64,000 bases of DNA, from positions 1-64,000 of the forward strand of contig JBFMAF010000031.1 of NCBI GenBank assembly GCA_040755995.1, written 5' to 3'. Position 1 is the first letter of the stretch. Each line of letters begins with the position of its first letter. Source of the stretch: Acidobacteriota bacterium (lineage in GTDB: Bacteria; Acidobacteriota; CAIWXX01). Positions 12,052 to 25,774 of the stretch are shown in pieces. Under the pieces are notes generated by a model, which worked only from the letters and a program-made list of their open reading frames with translations, was not told the DNA's origin and ran no database searches. Made by a program: the position numbers and the translations under genes.

Positions 12052-12501
12052 TCAGTCGTCTCGACACAGCAGATCGATGGCTGCGGTGTAGCTTCCGGCA
12101 CCGAGCCCTGAGATCTGCTTGATGCATGCGGCCCGCACCACCGATTTCCGCCGGAATGCCTCGCGCCGGTGGATGTCGGAAAGGTGGACCTCTACGGTCG
12201 GGATTCGCACGGCGGCGATCGCGTCACGCAGGGAATAGCTGTAGTGCGTCAGCGCGCCAGGGTTCATGACGATTCCGTCGGCCCAACGGCGATTGCTGTG
12301 AATGCAGTCGATCAGCGCACCTTCATGATTGGACTGGCACGATCGGATGACGGCTCCACGCAGCGCCGCATGAGCGCGGATCCTTCGATCCAGCTCTCTC
12401 AGGCTCATGGTGCCGTAGATCTCGGGCTCGCGCTCACCGAGCAGGTTCAGGTTTGGCCCGTGGATCACAAGGATACGGGTCTGTGCTCTCTTTGATCGCA
12501 T
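12052..12501 (-). CDS. aroQ: type II 3-dehydroquinate dehydratase
   Basis: [46 protein letters not shown]. Confidence 0.97.
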
Positions 12502-13574
12502 AGCCACTCCTCGATCATTTCAACGCTGACCTCCGTTTCGACCAGGCGTACCTTTCCGATCTCCTCGATCAGCACCAGCGTCAATCCGCACGCGCATCGC
12601 TTCTTGTCGACGCCCATGTGCTCGACCAAGTCGGCCGCCGCGAGATCCAGCGGCAGCGACGGGATCGGGAAACGATTCAGCAGGCCCGTGATGCGGTCGA
12701 ACTCGGACCGCCATAGAAGGCCGCGCTTCACAGAAACCTCGCAGGCCCACCGCATTCCGTGCACTACCGCTTCGCCGTGCCGGAAGCGGGAGAGGCCGGT
12801 CGAGGCTTCGATGGCATGCGCGAGCGTGTGGCCGAAGTTCAGAATACGGCGCAGGCCTCGTTCTCGCTCATCCTGCTCCACAATCCGAGCTTTCGCCTCA
12901 CAGCACGCGGCGATGATCTTCGCGATTGCCGCGAGGTCAGAGAGACCGGCGAGCGCATCGAGCGTGTCCTCGATTCGGGAGAAGAGAGCCGCGTCTTCGA
13001 TCAGCGCACACTTCACCACTTCGCCGAGCCCGCTCCAGACCTCGCGCCTCGGGAGCGTCAGTAGCACGGAGGGGTCGATACAAACCAAGCTGGGCTGATG
13101 GAACGCGCCGATGAGATTCTTTTCCGCCGCGTGGTTCACGCCGACCTTCCCGCCCACGCTGGAATCGACTTGCGCGAGGAGACTCGTGGGAACCTGCAGC
13201 ATCGGCACGCCGCGTAGGTAGGTGGCGGATACAAACCCGGCCAGGTCTCCCACAACGCCTCCGCCGAGCGCGACCACGAATCCGTCGCGATGGAGCCCAG
13301 ACTGGATCAGTCGAGTGTATAGATGCCCGGCCCATTCGATCGACTTCGACCTCTCTCCGGCGGGCACAACGTGCAGATCAGCCCGGATGCCGGCCCCGTG
13401 GAACGAGTCGATGACGCTCTGGGCGTAGAGAGAAGCCACCGTCTCGTCCGTGATCAGCGCCGCATGGCCCCCAAGACGCCTCCGCGCCGCCACGTCACCA
13501 ATCTGCGAGAGGCAGCCCAGTTCAACGTAGATCGGATACCCACGTTGGCCCAGTCGCACCTGCAACTCGATCAT
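12465..13574 (-). CDS. aroB: 3-dehydroquinate synthase
   Basis: [32 protein letters not shown]. Confidence 0.97.
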
Positions 13575-14146
13575 GGACCGTTCCTTGCGGTGCATGTCCC
13601 GCTCTGGGCCTGAGGGCCAGCAGCACCCGGGCAAGCGCCCGCGATATGCCCTATCAGGAGCTCCACGACGCGCTCCGGGCTGACCTCATCGCTGAACTGC
13701 AGCACAAGATCGGCACGCCTGTAGAGAGGCTCTCGCACCGCCAGCAGCTCGGCGATTCGCGCACGACCGTCGTCGCGTGCGAGAAGCGGGCGATCATGTG
13801 TTGTCTGAAGCCGAGCCCGAAGAATCTCCGGCGGGTACGAGAGGTACACGGTAGAGCCGGTCGCAGCGATCCGCTGCCAATTCTCGTCGTCCAGCACCGC
13901 ACCGCCTCCCAATGAGACGACGCATTCTTTGAGCATCGAGACAGACTCGACACACTTCCGCTCCAGGCGCCTGAACTGCCCCTCGCCCTTGCGTTCGAAA
14001 ATCTCAGCCACGCGCATACCGCTGCCCTCTTCGATCACTGCATCAGTGTCGATGAACCGGCGGCCGAGACGCTCGGCCAGCAGGCGCCCCACGGTCGTCT
14101 TCCCAGATCCCATGAATCCGATGATGTAGAGATTGCCTGTGAACAA
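13571..14146 (-). CDS. aroK: shikimate kinase
   Basis: GFMGSGKTTVG, DTD, SLGGG, RPLL. Confidence 0.95.
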   Translation of the reverse strand: MFTGNLYIIGFMGSGKTTVGRLLAERLGRRFIDTDAVIEEGSGMRVAEIFERKGEGQFRRLERKCVESVSMLKECVVSLGGGAVLDDENWQRIAATGSTVYLSYPPEILRARLQTTHDRPLLARDDGRARIAELLAVREPLYRRADLVLQFSDEVSPERVVELLIGHIAGACPGAAGPQAQSGTCTARNGP

Positions 14147-14149
14147 CCG

Positions 14150-15316
14150 TCAACTCCTGAAATTCTTCATCATCTCGTCGAGCGAATCCCCGCCGTATTT
14201 CTCGCACAACGCTCTGCCCAGTACGATCGCGAGCATGGCTTCTCCCACAACGGCGGCGGCTGGGACCGCGCACACATCCGACCGCTCGACGTGTGCCGGA
14301 GCCGCCTCGCCAGTCGACAGGTCCACCGATGGCAGGGGGCGCTGAAGCGTCGGGATAGGCTTCATGGTCGCGCGGACGAGGATGGGCTCGCCGTTGCCTA
14401 CACCGCCCTCGATTCCGCCGGCCCGATTGCTCCCGCGCCTCAGGCCCTCACCCGGCAAGATCGGATCGTGCACCTCCGAGCCGGGCCGCCCGGCGCATTC
14501 CACTCCGAGCCCGATCTCGACCGCCTTGACTCCCGGAATGCCCATGAACGCGCCGGCGATCTGCGCGTCCAGCCGGCGTTCCAAGTCCGCGTAGCTGCCG
14601 AGACCGACCGGCACACTCAGCGCCACCACCTCGAACATGCCGCCGACCGTGTCCCCCGCAGCCGCCGCGTCGCTTATGCAGCATTTCATCGCCTTCTCAG
14701 CCTCCCGATCACTTGTCCTCACCTCCGAGGCGTCCGCACGGCTGACCATTTCGCGGACCTCGGAAGACCCACCGGGCGCAGACCTGTCGAACAGAAGCCG
14801 AAGCGACTCCGATGCAGTCGCCGTGTGAATGCGGACTACATGGCTCCCGATCCAGATGCTGAAGGCGTCAAGCAGCTGCTGCACGACCGATCCGATCGCG
14901 ACGCGCAGCGCCGTCTCCCTCGCGCTCGCGCGCTCGATAACATTTCGCAGGTCGGTGTGGCCGTACTTGAGCGCGCCGGCGAGATCCGCGTGGCCCGGCC
15001 GCGGCACGGTCACCGGCGACGGGTCCGCTCCGTCGAAGACGCCCATCCGCTCCCGCCAGTTCTCCCAATCCCGATTCTCGATCACCAGGCTGATGGGGCT
15101 TCCGAGTGTGAGGCCGAACCGCACGCCTGAGAGTATCTGTGCGCGATCATGCTCGATCTTCATCCGGCCGCCGCGCCCAGCCCCGCCCTGCCGTTTTCGC
15201 AATTGCGCATCGATTCGCTCTTGCGCGATGCGCACGCCCGCGGGCATGCCCTCGATGATTCCGACGAGGGCTCGTCCGTGCGACTCACCGGCCGTAAGTA
15301 TCTTAAGCTGTCCCAT
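14150..15316 (-). CDS. aroC: chorismate synthase
   Basis: TAGESHG, PRPGHAD, ERASARET, NRAGGIEGG, ERSD. Confidence 0.97.
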   Translation of the reverse strand: MGQLKILTAGESHGRALVGIIEGMPAGVRIAQERIDAQLRKRQGGAGRGGRMKIEHDRAQILSGVRFGLTLGSPISLVIENRDWENWRERMGVFDGADPSPVTVPRPGHADLAGALKYGHTDLRNVIERASARETALRVAIGSVVQQLLDAFSIWIGSHVVRIHTATASESLRLLFDRSAPGGSSEVREMVSRADASEVRTSDREAEKAMKCCISDAAAAGDTVGGMFEVVALSVPVGLGSYADLERRLDAQIAGAFMGIPGVKAVEIGLGVECAGRPGSEVHDPILPGEGLRRGSNRAGGIEGGVGNGEPILVRATMKPIPTLQRPLPSVDLSTGEAAPAHVERSDVCAVPAAAVVGEAMLAIVLGRALCEKYGGDSLDEMMKNFRS

Positions 15317-16172
15317 CGATCTCTCCTTCGCGGATGAGGCTGGACCAGATCTTGTCGAAGAGTCCGTCCGGCATCTTCCGGCCCAGCCAGATCTCGGCGG
15401 CGGCCAGCGCCTGTGCGATCAACATCCGCATCCCCGGCACGATCCGCGCTCCACGACTCCGCGCATCCCGCAGCAGTCGCGTGACAAGCGGCCTCGGCAC
15501 CATGTCGAAGACCGTCGCTGACTGCGGCAATGACCGGAGATCCGCCAGTGGCGATTCGTCGACCTTCGGCCACATGCCCACCGGCGTCGAGTTAATCAGC
15601 AGGTCGATTCCGGCAAGATCGACGCCTCGCGCAGGTTCGTTCACCACGCTGACATCGAACGTGCCTCGCCTCCCGAATTCCCTGCACAAAGACTCGGCTC
15701 TAGATGCAGAACGGCAATGCATAGCCACGTGTCTCACACGAAACTCACCCAAGACATGCAGGACCGTCCGGGCTGCACCGCCCGCCCCCAACAGCAGCGC
15801 TTTCGAGCCGGGGCACAGCGCCGCATCCGCGAGCGCCACGCGTGCCCCGATGACATCCGTATTGAATCCGATGAGCCGGGCTTTCTCATTGAGAACCGTG
15901 TTGACGGCACCAACGCAGCCGGCTACTGAATCGAGCTCATCGAGCAGCGGAACAATCGTCTCCTTGTGCGGAATCGTGACGTTGAATCCCGGCCTTTGGC
16001 GCGTACGGGTGTCGCTGACGAAGGCAGCGAGATCCCCGGGTGCGACGCGCACGGCGTGATACTCGATGGACAGGCCGAGCTCCTCGTAGACCATGCGATG
16101 AATCGCCGGTGAGAGCGTTTGGGCCACTGGATCGCCGATGACACAATACGATGGTTCGACGCGGCTACCCAT
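15303..16172 (-). CDS. aroE: shikimate dehydrogenase
   Basis: GDPVAQTLSP, NVTIPHK, GAVNT, NTD, GAGGAAR. Confidence 0.95.
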   Translation of the reverse strand: MGSRVEPSYCVIGDPVAQTLSPAIHRMVYEELGLSIEYHAVRVAPGDLAAFVSDTRTRQRPGFNVTIPHKETIVPLLDELDSVAGCVGAVNTVLNEKARLIGFNTDVIGARVALADAALCPGSKALLLGAGGAARTVLHVLGEFRVRHVAMHCRSASRAESLCREFGRRGTFDVSVVNEPARGVDLAGIDLLINSTPVGMWPKVDESPLADLRSLPQSATVFDMVPRPLVTRLLRDARSRGARIVPGMRMLIAQALAAAEIWLGRKMPDGLFDKIWSSLIREGEIDGTA

Positions 16173-17445
16173 CGATGACCTCATCCAGCGCGTCGTAGAA
16201 CCCGGGGTAGCTCACGTCGGCCGATCCGGCTCCGGCTATCATCGTCTCCCCCTCAGCCACCAACCCCGCCACGGCAAAGGCCATCGCGATCCTGTGGTCT
16301 CCGAAGCTATCGACCACGACGCCGCGGAGGCGTTGCGATCCACAGATGACGAACCCATCGTTGAGCTCCGTCGCATGTGCACCCATCAGACCCAGATTTC
16401 TCACTACAGCGTGAATGCGATCTGCCTCCTTGACGCGCAGCTCGGCCGCGCCGCGCACCACTGTCTCGCCTTCGGCCTGCGTCGCCGCAACGGCGAGCAA
16501 CGGAAGCTCATCGATGATTGACGGGATCAGGTCGACGGGCACTGCAGCTCCGTGGAGCCTGCTCGAACGGACGACGATATCGGCTCTCGGCTCGCCGCCT
16601 ACGATCCGGACTCCTTCAAACGACAATCGCGCGCCCATGGACCCGAGCACGCGCAGGAGACCGGTTCGGGTCGGGTTCACGCACACGTCGCGGATGATGA
16701 GCTCGGAACCCGGCAGCACGCATGCGGCCACGAGGAAGAAGGCGGCGGAAGACGGATCGCCGGCCACATCGATGGTCGTCGCCCGCAGTCTCGCCGGCCC
16801 TGAGACGCAGCTACTCGGCCCATCTGCTCGCACAACCACTCCAAACAACGGCAGCATCAGCTCCGTGTGATTTCGCGACACCCAAGGCTCCTCGATCGAC
16901 GTCTCCCCGTCCGCGTGCAGGCCTGCGAGCAGCACGCACGACTTCACCTGAGCGCTCGCCACCGGCAGCGCATGGTGAATAGGGCGCAGCCGGCCGCCGC
17001 GGATGCGCAGCGGAGCTCGACTCTCTCTGTCAGCGTCGATCGAGGCCCCCATCCGTCTCAAAGGTTCGAGCACGCGTGCCATCGGGCGTCGGCGGAGCGA
17101 TTCATCGCCGGTAATAACCGATTCGAACGGATGAGCCGCAAGGATGCCGGAGAGCAGACGGACCGTCGTCCCCGAGTTGCCGGCATCAAGGCAATCAGCC
17201 GGCTGCTCGAAGCCGCACAGGCCTCGGCCGTGGACGGCGACACCGCTTCCTGTTTGGTGGATCGACACCCCAAGGCGCGCCAGGCAATTCGCGGTGCTTC
17301 GCACGTCGCGCCCTGGAGCGATGTTCAGGATGCGCGTGGTCCCATCGGCGATGCTCGCCAGCATCAACGCGCGATGCGAGATGGACTTGTCGCCGGGAAC
17401 GGTCAGCTCGCCGCGCAGTCTGGCTGCGGGTCGGATTCTGCGCAT
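16165..17445 (-). CDS. aroA: EPSP synthase
   Basis: PGDKSISHR, GNSGTT, SAQVKS, LRVKE, DHRIAM. Confidence 0.97.
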   Translation of the reverse strand: MRRIRPAARLRGELTVPGDKSISHRALMLASIADGTTRILNIAPGRDVRSTANCLARLGVSIHQTGSGVAVHGRGLCGFEQPADCLDAGNSGTTVRLLSGILAAHPFESVITGDESLRRRPMARVLEPLRRMGASIDADRESRAPLRIRGGRLRPIHHALPVASAQVKSCVLLAGLHADGETSIEEPWVSRNHTELMLPLFGVVVRADGPSSCVSGPARLRATTIDVAGDPSSAAFFLVAACVLPGSELIIRDVCVNPTRTGLLRVLGSMGARLSFEGVRIVGGEPRADIVVRSSRLHGAAVPVDLIPSIIDELPLLAVAATQAEGETVVRGAAELRVKEADRIHAVVRNLGLMGAHATELNDGFVICGSQRLRGVVVDSFGDHRIAMAFAVAGLVAEGETMIAGAGSADVSYPGFYDALDEVIDG

Positions 17446-17465
17446 GATGCCGCCCGCCACGCACA

Positions 17466-18539
17466 TCACGTGGTACCCCACCCGAGTGCGGTCCGGGCGG
17501 CAGGACGTTGCGCGCAGGAAGAATACACCGCGCCAGGTGTGGATAGCCGCCGGCCGACGGCCTCCGCGACGAGACGGGTTTCCTCCATCAGCTGCCGGAA
17601 CTGGTCGAGCGTCAGCGACTGGTCTCCGTCTGAAAGGGCGCGGTCCGGATCCGGATGGACCTCGACGATGATGCCGTCGGCTCCGGCCGCCACCGCGGCC
17701 CGCGCCATCGGGATCACGGCATCCCGCCGCCCAGTGCCGTGGGACGGGTCGACGATGACCGGAAGGTGAGTCTTCGACTTGAGGACGGGCACGGCGTTCA
17801 GGTCCAGCGTATTTCGCGTGGCGGTCTCGAATGTCCGTATGCCGCGTTCGCAGAGAATGACCTGCGAGTTGCCCTCGACCAGAACGTACTCCGCCGCGAG
17901 CATCAGCTCGCTGAGGCTTGAAGCTGGGCCGCGCTTGAGGAGCACCGGCTTGCCCGCGCGGCCGACAGCTCGCAGGAGCGGGAAGTTTTGCATCGAACGG
18001 GCGCCGACCTGTATGCAGTCGACTGTATCGCGCATCAGATCCACGTCCTCCGGCTCCATCGCCTCCGTGACAACGGGCAATCCGGTCGCGCGCTTCACCT
18101 CGTCGAGGATCGCGAGGCCCCCCAGGCGCAGGCCCTGAAACGCGTACGGCGACGTACGTGGCTTGTACGCGCCGCCCCTGAGCGCTGTGGCCCCGTAGGC
18201 CGCCACGAACCGGGCCGCGGTCATGAGCTGGTGCTTGTCCTCCACCGAGCACGGCCCCGCGATGACCGCCAGGTCCTTCCCGCCCACAAGAGTCCGTCCT
18301 AGTGGAACTACAGTGCCACGCCTATTGGCGTCTCGGGCTGCGAGCACAGGTCCATTCATCTCCGCGACGACCGATTCCACACCGGGCATATGCTGGACTT
18401 CCGCCCCGCCAGGGTCTTGTCGACCCATGCCTATGATGAATCGTCCAAACGGCAAGACCACTCGTCGCGGATCTCCGATCCTGGATAGAACAGCCTCGAT
18501 CTCCGTGTCACGAGCAGAATCTTTCAGTCTGACTATCAT
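17466..18539 (-). CDS. aroF: DAHP synthase, class I-beta with N-terminal regulatory (ACT-like) domain
   Basis: [34 protein letters not shown]. Confidence 0.95.
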
Positions 18540-19333
18540 GCGTGGTTCTCCCGCAAGGCGCTCCCGGCCTCGACAAGACCCCTCACAAACACCTTCGCGG
18601 CCTGGAAGGCGTTCTGTCCGCCGCGCCTCTGGAGGTGGTGGATCAGGGCCGATCCGACCACGACGCCGTCGGCGAGTTTCCAGAGCCGCCGTACGTCCTC
18701 GGGCCCCCTCACACCGAATCCCACCGCAACGGGGAGACCGGAGCGATCTCGAATCTGCTGAATCCGAGAGGCCAGCTCGATTGTCGACGGGTCGTGCGTC
18801 CCGGTCACTCCATGTCGCGCGACGAGGTAGACGAAGCCTCGGCCGGAGTCTGCGATATGTTGTGCACGACTCTCGGTCGTGTTGGGGCTCACCAGCACGA
18901 TCGGGTCAACACCGCATGCCGCCGCGGATTCGAACCAGCCGGGCTCTTCCTCCGGCGGGAGATCCAGCACCAGCACGCCGTCGACACCGGCTTCGCTCGT
19001 CCTCCGCAGGAATGTCTCGGGCCCCATAGTGAGGACCGGGTTCAAGTAGGTGAAGAGCACCATTGGGACCGTCGTGCGCGCACGCAGCCCGTTGATGAGC
19101 GAGAGTGTGCGCCCAAGGCTGCCGCCGCCGGCCAGCGCCCTCTGATGTGCATGCTGGATCACGGGGCCGTCTGCGACCGGATCCGAGTGCGGCACGCCGA
19201 TCTCGAGAGCTCGAGCCCCGCCATCAATCGCGCCGAGCGCCGCGCATACGAAAGCGTCGTCATCCGGATCTGAAGCAGTGAGGTACGGAATCAGGGCGTG
19301 ACCTCCGCCGATGGCTTTCTCGAGGCGACTCAC
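18536..19333 (-). CDS. trpA: tryptophan synthase alpha chain
   Basis: [33 protein letters not shown]. Confidence 0.97.
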
Positions 19334-20538
19334 TGTGCACCTCCCGGCGTACTGGCCCGCCCGGCTACGGTCTCCACGTCCTTGTCGCCGCGCCCGGAGA
19401 GATTAAGCAGGATGCGCGCGCCCGAGCCGAGATCCGAGGCGGCATGGTTGAGGACATAGGCCACTGCGTGCGCGCTCTCGAGCGCGGGGATTATGCCCTC
19501 CAGCTCGCACAGCGCGCGGAACGCAGCGACCGCATCCTGATCCGAGACTCTCGTGTACCTCGCGCGCGCTGTCAGATGGAGCTGGCTGTGCTCTGGGCCG
19601 ACGGCCGGGTAGTCGAGGCCCGCCGCGACCGAGCCCGTTGCCAGGACCTGCCCATGCTCATCCTGGAGCAAGTAAGTGTAGCAGCCGTGCAGAACGCCTG
19701 GGCGCCCGCCGTTGAAGCGCGATGCGTGCCGGCCGGGCTCGTCCCCATTGCCTCCTGCCTCCACACCCACCAGATCCACTTGCGGATCGTGGAGGAAGGC
19801 CGAGAACAGTCCGATCGCGTTAGACCCGCCGCCGACGCAAGCGATTGCCGCGTCTGGCAGACGGCCCTCGGCACGCGAGAACTGCTCACGTGCCTCGCTG
19901 CCAATGATGGATTGGAATGTGCGCACCATGAGAGGGAACGGGCGCGGCCCGAGCGCCGATCCGAGAAGGTAGTACGTGTCCAATGGATGCGCCGCCCATT
20001 CTCTGAGCGCCTCGTTGATAGCCTCCTTCAAGGTTCCTGTGCCGGCTCGAACTGGCATGACTCGTGCGCCGAGAAGCTCCATGCGCCTCACATTCATCGC
20101 CTGACGATTCATGTCCGTGATTCCCATGTAGACTGTGCAAGGAATCCCGAGCAGAGCGCATGCGGTTGCGGATGCAACTCCGTGCTGCCCCGCGCCCGTT
20201 TCGGCGATCACGCGCCGCTTGCCCATATTTCGCGCAAGCAGAGCCTGTCCGACAGCGTTGTTGATCTTGTGCGAGCCGGTGTGCCCGAGGTCCTCGCGCT
20301 TCAGGTACACCGCGCGCACTCCGGCCGCGGCCTCGAGCTTTGCGGCACGGTACAAAGGCGTAGGGCGGCCGGAGTACGAGGCGAGCAGATCAGTGTACTC
20401 CTTGCGGAAAGATGGATCGTCCCAGGCATCGAGAAACGCCGCATCGAGCTCCAGCAGCGGCGCCATCAGCGTCTCCGGCACGAATCGTCCCCCGAATGGG
20501 CCGTACTCGCGCGCGCGTTCGAGTAGCTCAGAATGCAT
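19330..20538 (-). CDS. trpB: tryptophan synthase beta chain
   Basis: HTGSHKINN, AETGAGQHG, GGGSN, GLDYPAVGP, SGRGDKD. Confidence 0.98.
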   Translation of the reverse strand: MHSELLERAREYGPFGGRFVPETLMAPLLELDAAFLDAWDDPSFRKEYTDLLASYSGRPTPLYRAAKLEAAAGVRAVYLKREDLGHTGSHKINNAVGQALLARNMGKRRVIAETGAGQHGVASATACALLGIPCTVYMGITDMNRQAMNVRRMELLGARVMPVRAGTGTLKEAINEALREWAAHPLDTYYLLGSALGPRPFPLMVRTFQSIIGSEAREQFSRAEGRLPDAAIACVGGGSNAIGLFSAFLHDPQVDLVGVEAGGNGDEPGRHASRFNGGRPGVLHGCYTYLLQDEHGQVLATGSVAAGLDYPAVGPEHSQLHLTARARYTRVSDQDAVAAFRALCELEGIIPALESAHAVAYVLNHAASDLGSGARILLNLSGRGDKDVETVAGRASTPGGAQ

Positions 20539-21220
20539 GGTGGCCCTCCTTCCGTTGTGCACAACGAAACCCATCCATCGCGGCGGCGCAGAACGCGCGT
20601 ATGCGCCCGGCGTCTTTCACCCCGGCGCGAGACTCGAGCCCGCTGGCGGCGTCCACACCTGCCGGAGCGCACGTGGCGATCGCATCGGCAACGTTGTCGG
20701 GATTGAGGCCGCCTGCGATCACGAACGGCGCGCCCGCCGTGCGGGCCAGCTCCCACCGGAACGATCGTCCCGTCCCGCCAGGGTGGTTCGGTGCGAACGA
20801 GTCGAGGAGCAGGACGTCGCCCCATGTCTGCCTGCCGATTGTCTCCGGACGAGCCGGCCGCGCCTCCACGATCCCACAGCCACGCTCTGCCAGGCGCCGC
20901 CGAAGAGCCTCGCGTGGCGGCACGAGCATCTGCACGAAGGAGACCGGCAGGCTGGCGGCGAGTTCTTCGCTCGAGAAGGAGCCGTCCACTACGATCAGCA
21001 CCGGCACAAGGCGCATCTGCACGGCGACCAAGACCAGCGGTTGGACCCGCTCGAGCGGAACATACCTCGGGCTCCGGCGCCACGTGTTGATCCCGACATG
21101 GGTGGCTCCCGCGCCGGCGCACGCTTCCAGATCCAAAAGGGTGCAAACGCCGCACACCTTGATCCAGGGCGAGGTTCGAGACGGGGGCGTCGCCGCCGCG
21201 CGGCACCGCTGCGCGCTCAT
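20528..21220 (-). CDS. trpF: phosphoribosylanthranilate isomerase
   Basis: IKVCG, SPRYV, GGTG, AGGL, GVDAASGLE. Confidence 0.92.
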   Translation of the reverse strand: MSAQRCRAAATPPSRTSPWIKVCGVCTLLDLEACAGAGATHVGINTWRRSPRYVPLERVQPLVLVAVQMRLVPVLIVVDGSFSSEELAASLPVSFVQMLVPPREALRRRLAERGCGIVEARPARPETIGRQTWGDVLLLDSFAPNHPGGTGRSFRWELARTAGAPFVIAGGLNPDNVADAIATCAPAGVDAASGLESRAGVKDAGRIRAFCAAAMDGFRCAQRKEGHHAF

Positions 21221-22026
21221 TGCAGCACCGCCACTTCTGCGCGGCCGAGTGCTCGTCCGAACCCGCGCAGCATAGACTCCGGATCGCTGGAGCGCATGAG
21301 TGCTTCGCCGATCAGGAAGCCGTGTGCCCCGGCATCCGCCAGCGCCCGCAGGTCAGCTTCGTCACGAATGCCGCTTTCGGCGATGGTCGCACTGCCGGGG
21401 GGAACCAATGGAGCGAGCGTTTTGACGGTGTCGAAGTCGACGTGGAACGTGTCGAGATCGCGCGAGTTGATCCCGATGACCCGGGCACCGCTCGCGACGG
21501 CATGACGCAGCTCGGGCTCGGAATGCACCTCGACCAGAGGCTCCAGGCCGAGGTCCAGAGCCCGCTCGACGTAGGCACCGAGGGCTTCGCCGAGGACGCG
21601 CGCGATCAGCAGCACCCAGCTGGCTCCGTCGTGCCGCGCCTGGACGAGTTGATAAGGATCGACGACGAAGTCCTTGCAGAGCACAGGCACTCGAACCGAT
21701 CGAGCCACAGCTGCGACATCTTCGGACGAGCCACAGAAGTAGTCCGGCTCGCACAGGACGCTGATGGCGTCCGCGCCGCCGCGCTCGTAGGCGAGCGCTC
21801 GCTCGACGACATCCGCGTGTGCCGTAATCCGGCCACGGCTGGGCGAGGCTCTCTTTATTTCGGCGATGATGAACCCGCAGCTCCGCACGATCCGCCCAAC
21901 GGGACTGGACGGCCGGCCTGCGCGCTCGGGCAACCGCGCCGCCAGATGGTCGTACGGCACAAGCGCACGAGCTTTCTGCACGCGCTCTCGTCTTCTGGCA
22001 ATGACTTGTTCAAGAAAGCCGTGCAT
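21217..22026 (-). CDS. trpC: indole-3-glycerol phosphate synthase
   Basis: IAEIKRASPS, KDF, LVEVH, GINSRDL, AESGI. Confidence 0.95.
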   Translation of the reverse strand: MHGFLEQVIARRRERVQKARALVPYDHLAARLPERAGRPSSPVGRIVRSCGFIIAEIKRASPSRGRITAHADVVERALAYERGGADAISVLCEPDYFCGSSEDVAAVARSVRVPVLCKDFVVDPYQLVQARHDGASWVLLIARVLGEALGAYVERALDLGLEPLVEVHSEPELRHAVASGARVIGINSRDLDTFHVDFDTVKTLAPLVPPGSATIAESGIRDEADLRALADAGAHGFLIGEALMRSSDPESMLRGFGRALGRAEVAVLQ

Positions 22027-23029
22027 CTTGTCTCTCCAACAGTGCATCGAAGAAACGCCCTACCTCGCCGCTCTCGATGGCATCCAGCGCGACTCCGGCC
22101 GCCTCTTTCAGCCCCTCGCATCTGCCGGCGATGCGCAGGGCAAGCGCAGCATTCGCGGCCACGGCGCGGCATAGCCCGCGGTCCGCGTGGCCTCGCAGGA
22201 GCGCTTCGAGCTGGGCAGCGTTGTGCGTAGCGTCGCCGCCGAGCACGTCCTCGCGCCGGCCGGCTGGAAGCCCGAAGTCGTCGTGGCCGAGATCGTACTG
22301 GTCGCGCCGTCCGTTTCGCAGCTCGATCACGTGCGTCGGTGCGCTGAGGATGACCTCGTCATAGCCGCCATCGGCGTGGACGATCATGGCACGCTCGCAG
22401 CCCAGCATCTCCATGCAGCCCGCCACGAGCGACATGCATTCGCGGCTGAAGACGCCGACCACCTGGCGCCGTACGCCGGCGGGGTTGAGGAGCGGTCCCA
22501 GCAGGTTGAAAGCGGTGCGAACACCCATCGTTCGTCTCACCGCCGACATGTGGGCCATGGCCGGGTGGTATTTCGGAGCGAACAGGAATGCGAACCGATG
22601 CTCAGTGTACCTCGCGGCCGCCTCCGCCGGGTCCTCAGCGATGGGATAGCCGAGGGACTCGAGAAGATCGGCGGAGCCGCACGCGCTGGAGACGCCGCGA
22701 TTGCCATGTTTTGCGACGTGCTGGCCGAGGGATGCCGTGGTAAGCGCCGCGGCGGTGCTCAGGTTGAACGTAGCACGATTGTCCCCGCCGGTGCCGCACG
22801 TGTCCACTGCGTTCGGAGCGGGCGGGAACGGCTTCATCGACTCGCGGAAGGCCATGGCAAGGCCCGCGATCTCTTCGGCTGTTTCGCCCCGGGCCGCGAG
22901 GGCGCCGAGGAACGCCGCTGCCGCCACGGGCTCGGTGTTGCCGGACGCGAGCGATCGTCCTGCTTCCAGCGCCTCCTGCCTGGCCAGCACGCCGCCCGCG
23001 GCCACCTTCCTCAGGATGTCCCTAAACAT
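22010..23029 (-). CDS. trpD: anthranilate phosphoribosyltransferase
   Basis: DTCGTGGD, NLST, KHGNR, FNLLGPLLNP. Confidence 0.95.
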   Translation of the reverse strand: MFRDILRKVAAGGVLARQEALEAGRSLASGNTEPVAAAAFLGALAARGETAEEIAGLAMAFRESMKPFPPAPNAVDTCGTGGDNRATFNLSTAAALTTASLGQHVAKHGNRGVSSACGSADLLESLGYPIAEDPAEAAARYTEHRFAFLFAPKYHPAMAHMSAVRRTMGVRTAFNLLGPLLNPAGVRRQVVGVFSRECMSLVAGCMEMLGCERAMIVHADGGYDEVILSAPTHVIELRNGRRDQYDLGHDDFGLPAGRREDVLGGDATHNAAQLEALLRGHADRGLCRAVAANAALALRIAGRCEGLKEAAGVALDAIESGEVGRFFDALLERQDARLS

Positions 23030-23606
23030 GCCGCACCGCCTGGCACATCGCGACGAAGTTGCCGCAAACACGTTCCCCTTCAGGCGTGAGGATGGATTCC
23101 GGGTGGAACTGCACGCCGTGACAGTGATGTGCTCGGTGCCGGAGCGCCATGATCTCACCGTCCGGTGTGGTGCCCTGCACTATCAGGCAGTCCGGCACGC
23201 AATCGGACAGCACTGCAAGCGAATGGTATCGGCCGGCCATGAACGGACTGGGGAGCCCCGAGAGAACGCCGGACCCATCGTGCACGACGGGAGACGTCTT
23301 GCCGTGCATCGGCCGGGCGGCACGGTCCACCTTTGCGCCAAAAGCCTCGGCGATCGCCTGATGACCGAGGCAAACGCCGAGAATCGGGATGCGGCCGGCG
23401 AAGTTCCGGACGACGCTCTTGCAGACACCGGCTTCCGCGGGAGTGCCCGGACCCGGGGAGAGCACGATTCCCGAAGGATCGAGCTCTTCGATCTCCTCTA
23501 CACCGATCCCATCATTTCGCACGACTCGGACGGAGGGCTCGATCGCGCCGATCATTGAGACGAGATTGAACGTGAACGAATCGTAGTTGTCGATAAACAG
23601 AATCAT
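23022..23606 (-). CDS. trpG: anthranilate synthase component II (glutamine amidotransferase)
   Basis: IDNYDSFT, SPGPG, GVCLGHQ, RYHSL, QFHPES. Confidence 0.95.
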   Translation of the reverse strand: MILFIDNYDSFTFNLVSMIGAIEPSVRVVRNDGIGVEEIEELDPSGIVLSPGPGTPAEAGVCKSVVRNFAGRIPILGVCLGHQAIAEAFGAKVDRAARPMHGKTSPVVHDGSGVLSGLPSPFMAGRYHSLAVLSDCVPDCLIVQGTTPDGEIMALRHRAHHCHGVQFHPESILTPEGERVCGNFVAMCQAVRHV

Positions 23607-25081
23607 CGCTCACCTCCAAAGGCAGTTGACAGTTGTTGGTTGTCAGTTGTCAGAGGAGCCGGACGCGCATCATCGCCATGCAATGCAGCCAGAAGAGCGG
23701 CGGCTTTGTGGTGGATCTCGGCCCACTCGCTGTCCTCGTTCGAGTCCGCGACGATGCCGGCGCCCGATCTGAAGCGCACCGTCTCGCCTTCGAACTCCAT
23801 CGAGCGGATCGCGATGCAGGTTTCGATGGTGCCCGACGCGTCGATAACTCCGACGGCACCTCCGTAGAGCCCCCGGTCCGCTCCTTCGAGCTCCGACAGC
23901 ATCTGGACCGCGCGAATCTTCGGAGCGCCGCTGACCGTGCCGGCCGGAAAGGTGCTCCAGACGGCATCCAGCGGTGAACGATCGGGCGAGAGTCTGCCAC
24001 GGACCTCCGAAGTCATGTGCATCACGTGCGAGAACCGCTCGATACGGCCACGCACCGGAACGGTGACCGAGCCGAAATCGCAGACGCGGCCGAGGTCGTT
24101 GCGGGCCAGGTCGACCAGCATGGCGTGCTCTGCGAGCTCCTTCGGATCGGCCCGCAGGTCGTCCTCGAGCGCCGCATCTTCTTGCGGCGTGGCGCCTCGC
24201 CGCCTCGTGCCCGCAATCGGAATCGTGGTGACCTCGCGGCCTTCGATCCGAACCAGCATCTCGGGGGAGGCTCCCAGCACCTGGCGGCCGGCCAGAGAGA
24301 TGTAGAAATGGTATGGAGAGGGATTGAGCCGCCGCAGCCGGCGATAGACCGCGAACGGATCACCGCAGTAGCGGCCCTCGAACGGCTCGGACAGGACCAC
24401 CTGGTAGGCATCCCCGGCCAGGATGGCCGACTGGACCGCGGCGAGATTGCGCGAAAACCGGTCTCGCTGCGGTCCTGCCAGCAGAGACCAGGAGCCGTCC
24501 GCCGGAACCGTTCGCACAGCACCCGCGATACACGTCTCCATTTCTCGCAGGTGGGAGCGGCATTCAGTCTCATCTTCGCCATCCAGCGGAATCCGGTAGA
24601 GGTACACTTCCTGGCACAAGTGATCGAACACCAATCCGGCCGAGAAGAGTCCGAAAACGATCCGCGGATTCCGGGCACCGGGGAACCCGGCCCTGAGAGC
24701 GGGCTCGAAGAGCCCGTACGATGCGAAGTCGAACCAACCTACGGCCCCGCCCAGAAAGGGGACTTGCCGCGGTGCGTCATGCCGGATGAAGCCTGCCGCC
24801 CACTGGGCCAGCGCGCCCTCTACGTCGCTCCCGAGACCCGTCACGCGCCCGTTCGCACGGAGAGATGCACCGTCTCCTGCCTCGAACAGCTCGATCGGCG
24901 CGAAGCCGAGAAACGAGTAGCGTGCTTGCGATTCGCCGCCGAAGACCGACTCGAGCAGGAATGCGTCGTCGCCGGGTTTCGTCAGTGCGAGGAATGCGCG
25001 GACGGGAGTGCCGAGGTCCACCGGGATGCGGAGCACCACGGGCGGCCGCATGCTCGTTGCTACAATCTCTTTCACGTCCAT
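23603..25081 (-). CDS. trpE: anthranilate synthase component I
   Basis: FLLES, NPSPY, SPE, PIAGT, EHAMLVDLARND, GAPK. Confidence 0.95.
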   Translation of the reverse strand: MDVKEIVATSMRPPVVLRIPVDLGTPVRAFLALTKPGDDAFLLESVFGGESQARYSFLGFAPIELFEAGDGASLRANGRVTGLGSDVEGALAQWAAGFIRHDAPRQVPFLGGAVGWFDFASYGLFEPALRAGFPGARNPRIVFGLFSAGLVFDHLCQEVYLYRIPLDGEDETECRSHLREMETCIAGAVRTVPADGSWSLLAGPQRDRFSRNLAAVQSAILAGDAYQVVLSEPFEGRYCGDPFAVYRRLRRLNPSPYHFYISLAGRQVLGASPEMLVRIEGREVTTIPIAGTRRRGATPQEDAALEDDLRADPKELAEHAMLVDLARNDLGRVCDFGSVTVPVRGRIERFSHVMHMTSEVRGRLSPDRSPLDAVWSTFPAGTVSGAPKIRAVQMLSELEGADRGLYGGAVGVIDASGTIETCIAIRSMEFEGETVRFRSGAGIVADSNEDSEWAEIHHKAAALLAALHGDDARPAPLTTDNQQLSTAFGGER

Positions 25082-25093
25082 CTTCCCCCAGAC

Positions 25094-25122
25094 AGAAAAA
25101 GGCCCACCGCAAGCGGTGGGCC
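25094..25122 (-). terminator. attenuator terminator hairpin upstream of trpE
   Basis: Minus strand GGCCCACCG-CTTG-CGGTGGGCC followed by TTTTTCT. Confidence 0.9.
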
Positions 25123-25148
25123 GGTTTGCGCTCGCCTCTAGTTGCCGG

Positions 25149-25253
25149 CTACACGGTAGCTACCCGCGCGGGCGCACCCGGCCCTTGCCAGTACCAGAAG
25201 TACAGGACGAAGGCCACGGGGCTCGAATTGCGCGTCGCGGTGCTACCGATCAT
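25149..25253 (-). CDS. trpL: aromatic amino-acid leader peptide (34 aa) MIGSTATRNSSPVAFVLYFWYWQGPGAPARVATV
   Basis: Translated by hand; F/Y/W codon cluster immediately 5' of the antiterminator arm; lies between the promoter and the terminator. Confidence 0.85.
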   Translation of the reverse strand: MIGSTATRNSSPVAFVLYFWYWQGPGAPARVATV

Positions 25254-25260
25254 CGCGCGT

Positions 25261-25289
25261 AATCTAAGACAGGCAAGGACGGTTGTCAA
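25261..25289 (-). promoter_or_regulatory. sigma70 promoter of the trp-aro operon (leaderless start of the leader ORF)
   Basis: TTGACA-17 nt-TAGATT, then 7 nt, then ATG. Confidence 0.8.
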
Positions 25290-25453
25290 GGCAAAAGGCA
25301 AAGTGCAAGATGCAAAAGGGAAGGGCACAGTTGCAGTCCCATTCCTATCGGGTACATCGGGTACGAGAACACATTCGGGCGCGCAGAGGTGTGTGATACA
25401 ATCGCAGCGATGGAAGTGGGGCGGTCAGCCGCACTGTGTGAATGTGAGGGGAA

Positions 25454-25774
25454 ATGACCAAGTTTGAGCGCCACGTCTTCATATGTACCAACCGCCGGCC
25501 GGATTGGGACCCGAAGGGTTCTTGTGCGAAGTCGGGCTCGGAGCTAGTTCTGGCCGCATTCAAGGAGGGGCTCTCCCGCAGAGCCCTGAACAACCGGATC
25601 CGGGCCAATGCCGCTGGCTGCCTCGACGCATGCGCCGACGGCCCTGCTGTGGTCGTGTATCCCGATGGAGTCTGGTACGGCAGAGTGCGGCCCGAGGACG
25701 TGGAGGAGATCATAGAGGAACACCTCGTGAAGGGGAAGCCCGTCGAGAGGCTGCGCATTGCGGAGTCGCTGTGA
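25454..25774 (+). CDS. thioredoxin-like [2Fe-2S] ferredoxin
   Basis: HVFICTN...SC...GCLDAC..GP.VVVYPDGVWY. Confidence 0.92.
   Translation: MTKFERHVFICTNRRPDWDPKGSCAKSGSELVLAAFKEGLSRRALNNRIRANAAGCLDACADGPAVVVYPDGVWYGRVRPEDVEEIIEEHLVKGKPVERLRIAESL

Follow-up and report, generated by a model that had tools for sequence, protein, structure and literature searches.

The minus-strand leader in front of trpE in this acidobacterial genome is very likely a genuine attenuator. The mechanism is likely that of textbook ribosome-mediated attenuation in a mixed-codon variant, with Phe, Tyr and Trp codons interleaved in a single leader peptide; its oddity lies chiefly in a genome where no known enzyme leading from chorismate to Tyr or Phe was found. 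With some reserve, we favour a classical attenuator of a 14-gene operon that responds to Trp first, probably to Tyr and at most weakly to Phe, the Tyr/Phe input being inherited. Positions below refer to the window, the whole stretch of 64,000 nucleotides that was analysed. A sequence-only reading had proposed a promoter, a 34-aa open reading frame (ORF), an aromatic cluster, an antiterminator and a terminator on the minus strand, and all were found at the coordinates it gave. The features are as follows.

25261..25289, minus strand: sigma70-type promoter, TTGACA (25289-25284) and TAGATT (25266-25261) with a 17-nt spacer between, called from the sequence and from orthologue hexamers.
25149..25253, minus strand: leader peptide ORF (trpL-like) of 34 aa, ATG at 25253 to TAG at 25149, without a Shine-Dalgarno (SD) site and with a predicted leaderless start; basis, orthologous ORFs.
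25188..25211, minus strand: control codons F15 V L Y18 F19 W20 Y21 W22, filling slots -9 through -2 upstream of the antiterminator.
25177..25218, minus strand: 1:2 anti-antiterminator or pause hairpin, absent from the sequence-only reading and predicted by folding (-18.7 kcal/mol).
25168..25184, minus strand: antiterminator 5′ strand, encoding the conserved G-[P/S/L]-G motif.
25118..25135, minus strand: antiterminator 3′ strand, sharing 25122-25118 with the terminator 5′ arm.
25094..25122, minus strand: intrinsic terminator, a 9-bp stem (25122-25101; -18.8 kcal/mol) followed by five U (25100-25096).
18536..25081, minus strand: trpE trpG trpD trpC trpF trpB trpA, overlapping or abutting.
17466..18539, minus strand: aroF, a DAHP synthase of type I-beta; no other DAHP synthase was found.
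12052..17466, minus strand: aroA aroE aroC aroK aroB aroQ, with no chorismate mutase (CM), pheA or tyrA in the operon.

Within 1 kb there is one promoter-like site (shuffle mean 0.1), and the majority of orthologous leaders likewise have a TTGACA-type hexamer 5′ of the leader. The leader ATG lies 7 nt from TAGATT and its stop 67 nt from trpE. Eight codons hold two each for Phe, Tyr and Trp; at least six aromatic residues in eight occur in only 5 of the 51,942 ATG-started frames of 12-45 aa in the whole genome. The antiterminator (25184-25118; computed fold -37.1 kcal/mol) begins 12 nt downstream of the first base of W20 and occupies 5 nt of the terminator 5′ arm. Folding of the whole leader is no better than that of shuffles (z -0.74), and an Rfam search of 24900-25600, which included Trp_leader and other curated leader families, gave no match better than E 2.6.

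The leader heads 14 overlapping or abutting genes in the order trpEGDCFBA-aroF-aroA-aroE-aroC-aroK-aroB-aroQ. The nearest named relatives of its TrpE are Acidobacteriota, among them Thermoanaerobaculia and Holophagaceae, and the phylum was assigned on this basis. A second PF00793 match in the genome, 30% identical to aroF, is probably a KDO8P synthase. Searches for TrpR, for TRAP (mtrB) and for T-box RNA each found none, so that attenuation is the sole transcriptional control identified. At the start of trpE (25089-25073), a G-rich SD-like run stops only 3 nt ahead of the ATG at 25081; its spacing suits an in-frame GTG at 25075 better, and this codon may be the true start.

In the mechanism that we propose, a ribosome would start at the probably leaderless AUG and, when charged tRNA is short, stall around F19-W20-Y21, covering region 1 and leaving the antiterminator 5′ strand free. 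The antiterminator would then form ahead of synthesis of the terminator 3′ arm, letting RNA polymerase continue into trpE. A ribosome that runs through, or that never loads (so that the 1:2 hairpin forms), would allow the terminator to form.

We surveyed the phylum for this arrangement. Of 401 genomes, 314 were found to carry TrpE, and 140 TrpE loci were taken, comprising a spread of families and the close orthologues with upstream sequence, making 141 with the source window. Leaders were detected by Trp codons plus a terminator, a definition that replaced a circular one based on aromatic content (10/420 random positions matched). Such a leader was present at 58/141 trpE loci and at 3/705 random positions, although the detector missed some candidates (in G004, G022 and G039). 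Over 17 aligned orthologous leaders the antiterminator is 95.3% paired, a value reached by 0/500 shuffles (slid controls 29-51%), and the terminator is 100% paired (slid controls for both helices span 29-58%). Compensatory covariation is modest, at two pairs per helix, the remaining pairs being mostly invariant or changed on one side. A codon-free RNA pattern matched six metagenome loci, and all six have an in-frame leader with at least two Trp codons. Anatomy, conservation and covariation thus bear out the geometry of ribosome-mediated attenuation that had been recognised in the single sequence.

Several loci in the survey depart from the common form. The Tyr/Trp-rich ORFs before trpE at L019, L013 and L022 (G004, G039 and G022, respectively) have no called terminator, and perhaps use translational attenuation or weaker terminators. 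L127, L128 and L259 have the order trpF-trpA with no trpB match in between. A tyrS gene inside the operon was looked for and appeared at none of the 140 loci. At six Desulfovibrio-like loci (L074, L077, L078, L093, L099 and L111), a frame that follows aroA and ends just before trpE terminates in Trp-Trp(-Trp), and here the upstream gene possibly doubles as the leader.

To compare control codons between leaders, slots were counted back from the G-[P/S/L]-G motif, that is, from the first bases of the antiterminator, in 16 distinct orthologues with near-duplicates excluded. Slot -3 is Trp in 16/16, and no residue other than this Trp is invariant. Slot -4 has Trp in 12 and Tyr in 2; slot -5, Trp in 6, Tyr in 4 and Phe in none; slot -6, Trp in 4 and Tyr in 5; slot -2 never has Trp. 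In the source leader, Tyr occupies -3 and -6, Trp occupies -4 and -2, and Phe occupies -5 and -9. Its register may be the W-Y-W of the sister genome G002 shifted one codon nearer the antiterminator.

An equilibrium folding model, run over a range of ribosome edges instead of A+13 alone, gives a terminator probability below 0.5 only with the A site at F19 (edges +11 to +13), W20 (+8 to +12) or Y21 (+7 to +9); stalls at F15 leave it at 0.99 or above and stalls at W22 at 0.87 or above. In free RNA at equilibrium the terminator dominates. Before the terminator 3′ arm exists, its 5′ arm pairs upstream for stalls at codons 12-20. We treat the equilibrium model as weak evidence, because it shows no switch for the tyrA paralogue of G227 (lowest terminator probability 0.79). 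Trp sensing by the leader is very likely.

The sequence-only reading had held that a stall on any of the three aromatic tRNAs derepresses the operon. The Trp part of this is very likely, given the invariant slot -3 of the orthologues; comparison supports the Tyr part and does not support the Phe part. In 57 phylum leaders (the doubtful G192 dropped, G203 corrected by hand), with a control zone of 12 codons, Tyr takes 65 of 494 non-Trp control-zone positions and 6 of 727 positions in the remainder of the leader, odds about 18-fold higher. Phe is not enriched (25/494 in the control zone, 22/727 elsewhere, p 0.09), is missing from most orthologues, and in the source leader its F15 codon is paired inside the predicted 1:2 stem. 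Relatives conserve Trp codons, are enriched in Tyr codons that vary from leader to leader, and do not conserve those for Phe. A general enrichment of UNN (MiaA-read) codons was considered; Cys, the non-aromatic one counted, stands at 12/494 against 7/727, far under Tyr.

Tyr codons also show a trend with the content of the operon. A leader with at least two Tyr codons stands before 0/10 trp-only operons, 11/34 operons that include aro or CM genes and 7/8 that include tyrA or pheA; five operons that are truncated were left aside. Placed on the TrpE tree, this trend comes down to 3 and 6 independent pairs, which for Tyr never run the other way (median p 0.5), and with kinship controlled it is non-significant because the independent pairs are too few. 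There are counterexamples: G046 has tyrA and no Tyr in the leader, and G020, G199 and G133 have aroF in the operon while neither Tyr nor Phe stands close to the Trp codons of the leader.

The same scaffold occurs at other genes. In four genomes of one genus (L280-L283 in G227, G124, G200 and G037), the G-P-G scaffold and terminator stand before a CM-prephenate dehydrogenase fusion (CM-tyrA), and the leader has Tyr at -4 and -6 in 4/4, Phe at -8 in 3/4 and no Trp; the trpE leaders of those four genomes carry Trp-Trp. This copy is predicted to be a Tyr-specific leader-peptide attenuator. At L282 (G200:C68:11900-14191) the two sister attenuators stand in tandem: CM-tyrA and its Tyr attenuator come first, followed immediately by the Trp attenuator with the trp operon. 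Among 19 CM loci that were read, Tyr leaders with a related terminator precede CM or CM-tyrA in G052, G076, G144, G154, G100 and G173; none was called at G245, which lies at a contig edge. An F-Y-F leader and hairpin precede a CM-PDT-ACT-DAHP synthase fusion (~660 aa) in G199 and G133 (L296, L298), and no such leader was found at the CM-PDT loci of G173, G052, G076 and G144 or at two lone CMs. Given the Tyr-bearing, Trp-free scaffold copies before CM-tyrA and the Tyr leaders at other CM loci, Tyr very probably functions as a control codon in this lineage. For the source leader itself, the codon comparisons make Tyr co-sensing fairly probable, and meaningful Phe sensing doubtful.

The reading that the attenuator answers Trp only, its Phe and Tyr codons having no effect or being retained because the RNA must pair there, is unlikely. 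It draws on the invariance of Trp at slot -3, on the three aroF-bearing operons with plain Trp leaders, on the unenriched Phe and the paired F15 codon, and on the want of a known Phe/Tyr pathway in the genome. The Corynebacterium glutamicum aroR leader, as described in excerpts of PMC11802643, shows that a Tyr codon need not confer a response to Tyr. Against it stand the ~18-fold rise of Tyr in control zones and the use of Tyr by the scaffold before tyrA. In the source leader, moreover, Tyr fills slot -3, which is Trp in every orthologue, and the second Trp lies at -2, where 0/16 orthologues have one.

The rationale offered for three-way sensing, that the shikimate genes of the operon serve all three amino acids, fails here. 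At 99.84% completeness in 56 contigs, the source genome (G000) yields no match to PF01817, PF07736, PF00800, PF02153 or PF00351, and no CM, prephenate dehydratase (PDT), prephenate dehydrogenase (PDH) or PhhA was found in it. A tblastn search with pheA, tyrA and CM of relatives gave nothing full-length, just short nucleotide-binding motifs and the DAHP domain. The sister genome G002 (98% complete) also lacks matches to the four CM/PDT/PDH families, and CM is present in 14/18 genomes of the clade and family. In G001, of the same family, trpE is a different one, the operon includes pheA and tyrA, and the leader is rich in Phe/Tyr. No known route would therefore let derepression of the operon supply Phe or Tyr. 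As no second TrpE homologue (pabB-like), MqnA or UbiC was found in the source genome, TrpE/G is the only chorismate consumer identified.

Other gene content was noted in passing. No source of folate and quinone precursors was identified in G000. GTP cyclohydrolase I and PTPS lie near a second aroK on contig C4; hidden Phe/Tyr genes were sought there and none was found in 15/39 open frames scanned, nor is there a candidate within the operon. An IorA-like 2-oxoacid:ferredoxin oxidoreductase, below the family cut-off, is encoded at L257 (G000:C36:333448-336783) by a 1195-aa open frame that is apparently a fusion. An enzyme of this kind could in principle build aromatic amino acids from aryl acids, a route that would bypass the trp-aro operon.

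How the Tyr codons could have come to be there is suggested by relatives, in which the trp-linked aroF would feed a separate CM-tyrA gene having its own Tyr leader; this would explain Tyr codons in the source leader. With no CM, PDT or PDH found in the source genome, a stall at Tyr or Phe would raise expression of the Trp pathway and leave the shortage unrelieved. Under the inherited-input reading that we favour, the Tyr/Phe input would here be a relic or else an indirect signal that aromatic amino acids are scarce. A relic is plausible because the order aroF-aroA-aroE-aroC-aroK-aroB is that of the tyrA-bearing operons minus tyrA. The relic step sits badly, however, with the distribution of leaders among CM-less genomes: the CM-less family pair (the source genome and G002) combines leaders rich in aromatic codons with aro blocks longer than any others in the clade, while CM-less G020 and the same-genus G254 have Trp-only leaders.

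Another view is that three-way sensing is adaptive, the organism turning chorismate into Phe and Tyr with enzymes that escape recognition or whose genes the assembly lacks. The source genome and G002 retain Tyr/Phe codons and extended aro blocks without any CM, PDT or PDH, codon identity follows product elsewhere in the clade, and TrpE is the sole chorismate-using enzyme found. We judge it improbable all the same, since two nearly complete genomes both lack all three families with nothing full-length by tblastn, neither the operon nor the surroundings of the second aroK offers a candidate gene, and the Phe codons are unconserved. Its stronger form, in which the source bacterium and G002 make Phe and Tyr from chorismate through enzymes outside the known CM, PDT and PDH families, is a long shot; if true, one leader would sense all three aromatic tRNAs, and its codons would be the sign of a pathway still to be discovered.

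The start of the leader ORF bears on a further alternative. Most orthologous leaders have an SD, which is absent from those of the source genome and G002. TAnnnT occurs 6-9 nt upstream of 203 of 5,459 5′ ATGs over the four offsets, 0.8-1.1% per offset compared with ~0.5% at 10-20 nt (about a twofold excess) and 0.2-0.4% for inner ATGs. The excess is consistent with some genes being leaderless, and the promoter-ATG spacing makes leaderless initiation at 25253 plausible. That the ORF is instead untranslated, its SD lost, with the terminator acting as a fixed damper or bypassed otherwise, can hardly be right: the missing SD and the dominance of the terminator in free RNA would suit it, but the ORF keeps its frame, its stop in place and its aromatic cluster, both helices are preserved, the leader of G002 is likewise without an SD, and the TAnnnT excess is consistent with some leaderless genes.

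On the reading preferred here, leader-peptide attenuation would extend to Acidobacteriota, with one RNA scaffold re-tuned by codon swaps: Trp before trpE, Tyr before CM-tyrA and a mixture before trp-aro. The leaders form a natural series for asking what number of codons, and in which slots, renders an attenuator multivalent. Tyr/Phe codons set against a missing Phe/Tyr branch are either what is still visible of an earlier regulation or a hint at enzymes not yet known.

In the enterobacterial thr and ilv attenuators, a single leader contains codons for more than one end product of a pathway that branches, and the host makes every amino acid sensed; the present leader concerns another amino-acid family, and two of its three candidate signals have no known route. 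Our literature search, with comparative surveys outside its scope, found no trp leader with Trp, Tyr and Phe codons together and no Acidobacteriota trp attenuator; among such surveys, Vitreschak 2004 and Lopatovskaya 2010 may describe mixed leaders. Excerpts of PMC2659441 and PMC4833913 hold nothing specific to the source leader. Another parallel is Acholeplasma uORFC-13-1, a predicted uORF and terminator upstream of aroF that would likewise control the shikimate entry enzyme; according to excerpts of PMC8632094 it has only Phe codon(s), and it belongs to another phylum, both systems being known as predictions. The C. glutamicum aroR-aroF leader, with Phe-Tyr-Phe, is reported to respond to Phe and not Tyr (excerpts of PMC11802643 and PMC4046766). 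It shares mixed aromatic codons in control of a DAHP synthase with the source leader, and its codon trio with the F-Y-F leaders of G199 and G133; unlike the source leader, it has no Trp and does not head a trp operon as there described. Mixed aromatic leaders are thus not unprecedented (PMC11802643). Like Escherichia coli trpL, as presented in excerpts of PMC1183508 and PMC11802643, the source leader combines a short ORF that includes Trp codons with predicted 1:2, 2:3 and 3:4 hairpins that exclude one another and a U-tailed terminator before trpE. Unlike trpL, it interleaves Trp with Tyr and Phe and is probably leaderless, it has no sequence or Rfam similarity to that leader, and it stands, with no TrpR found, before an operon that holds the whole shikimate pathway.
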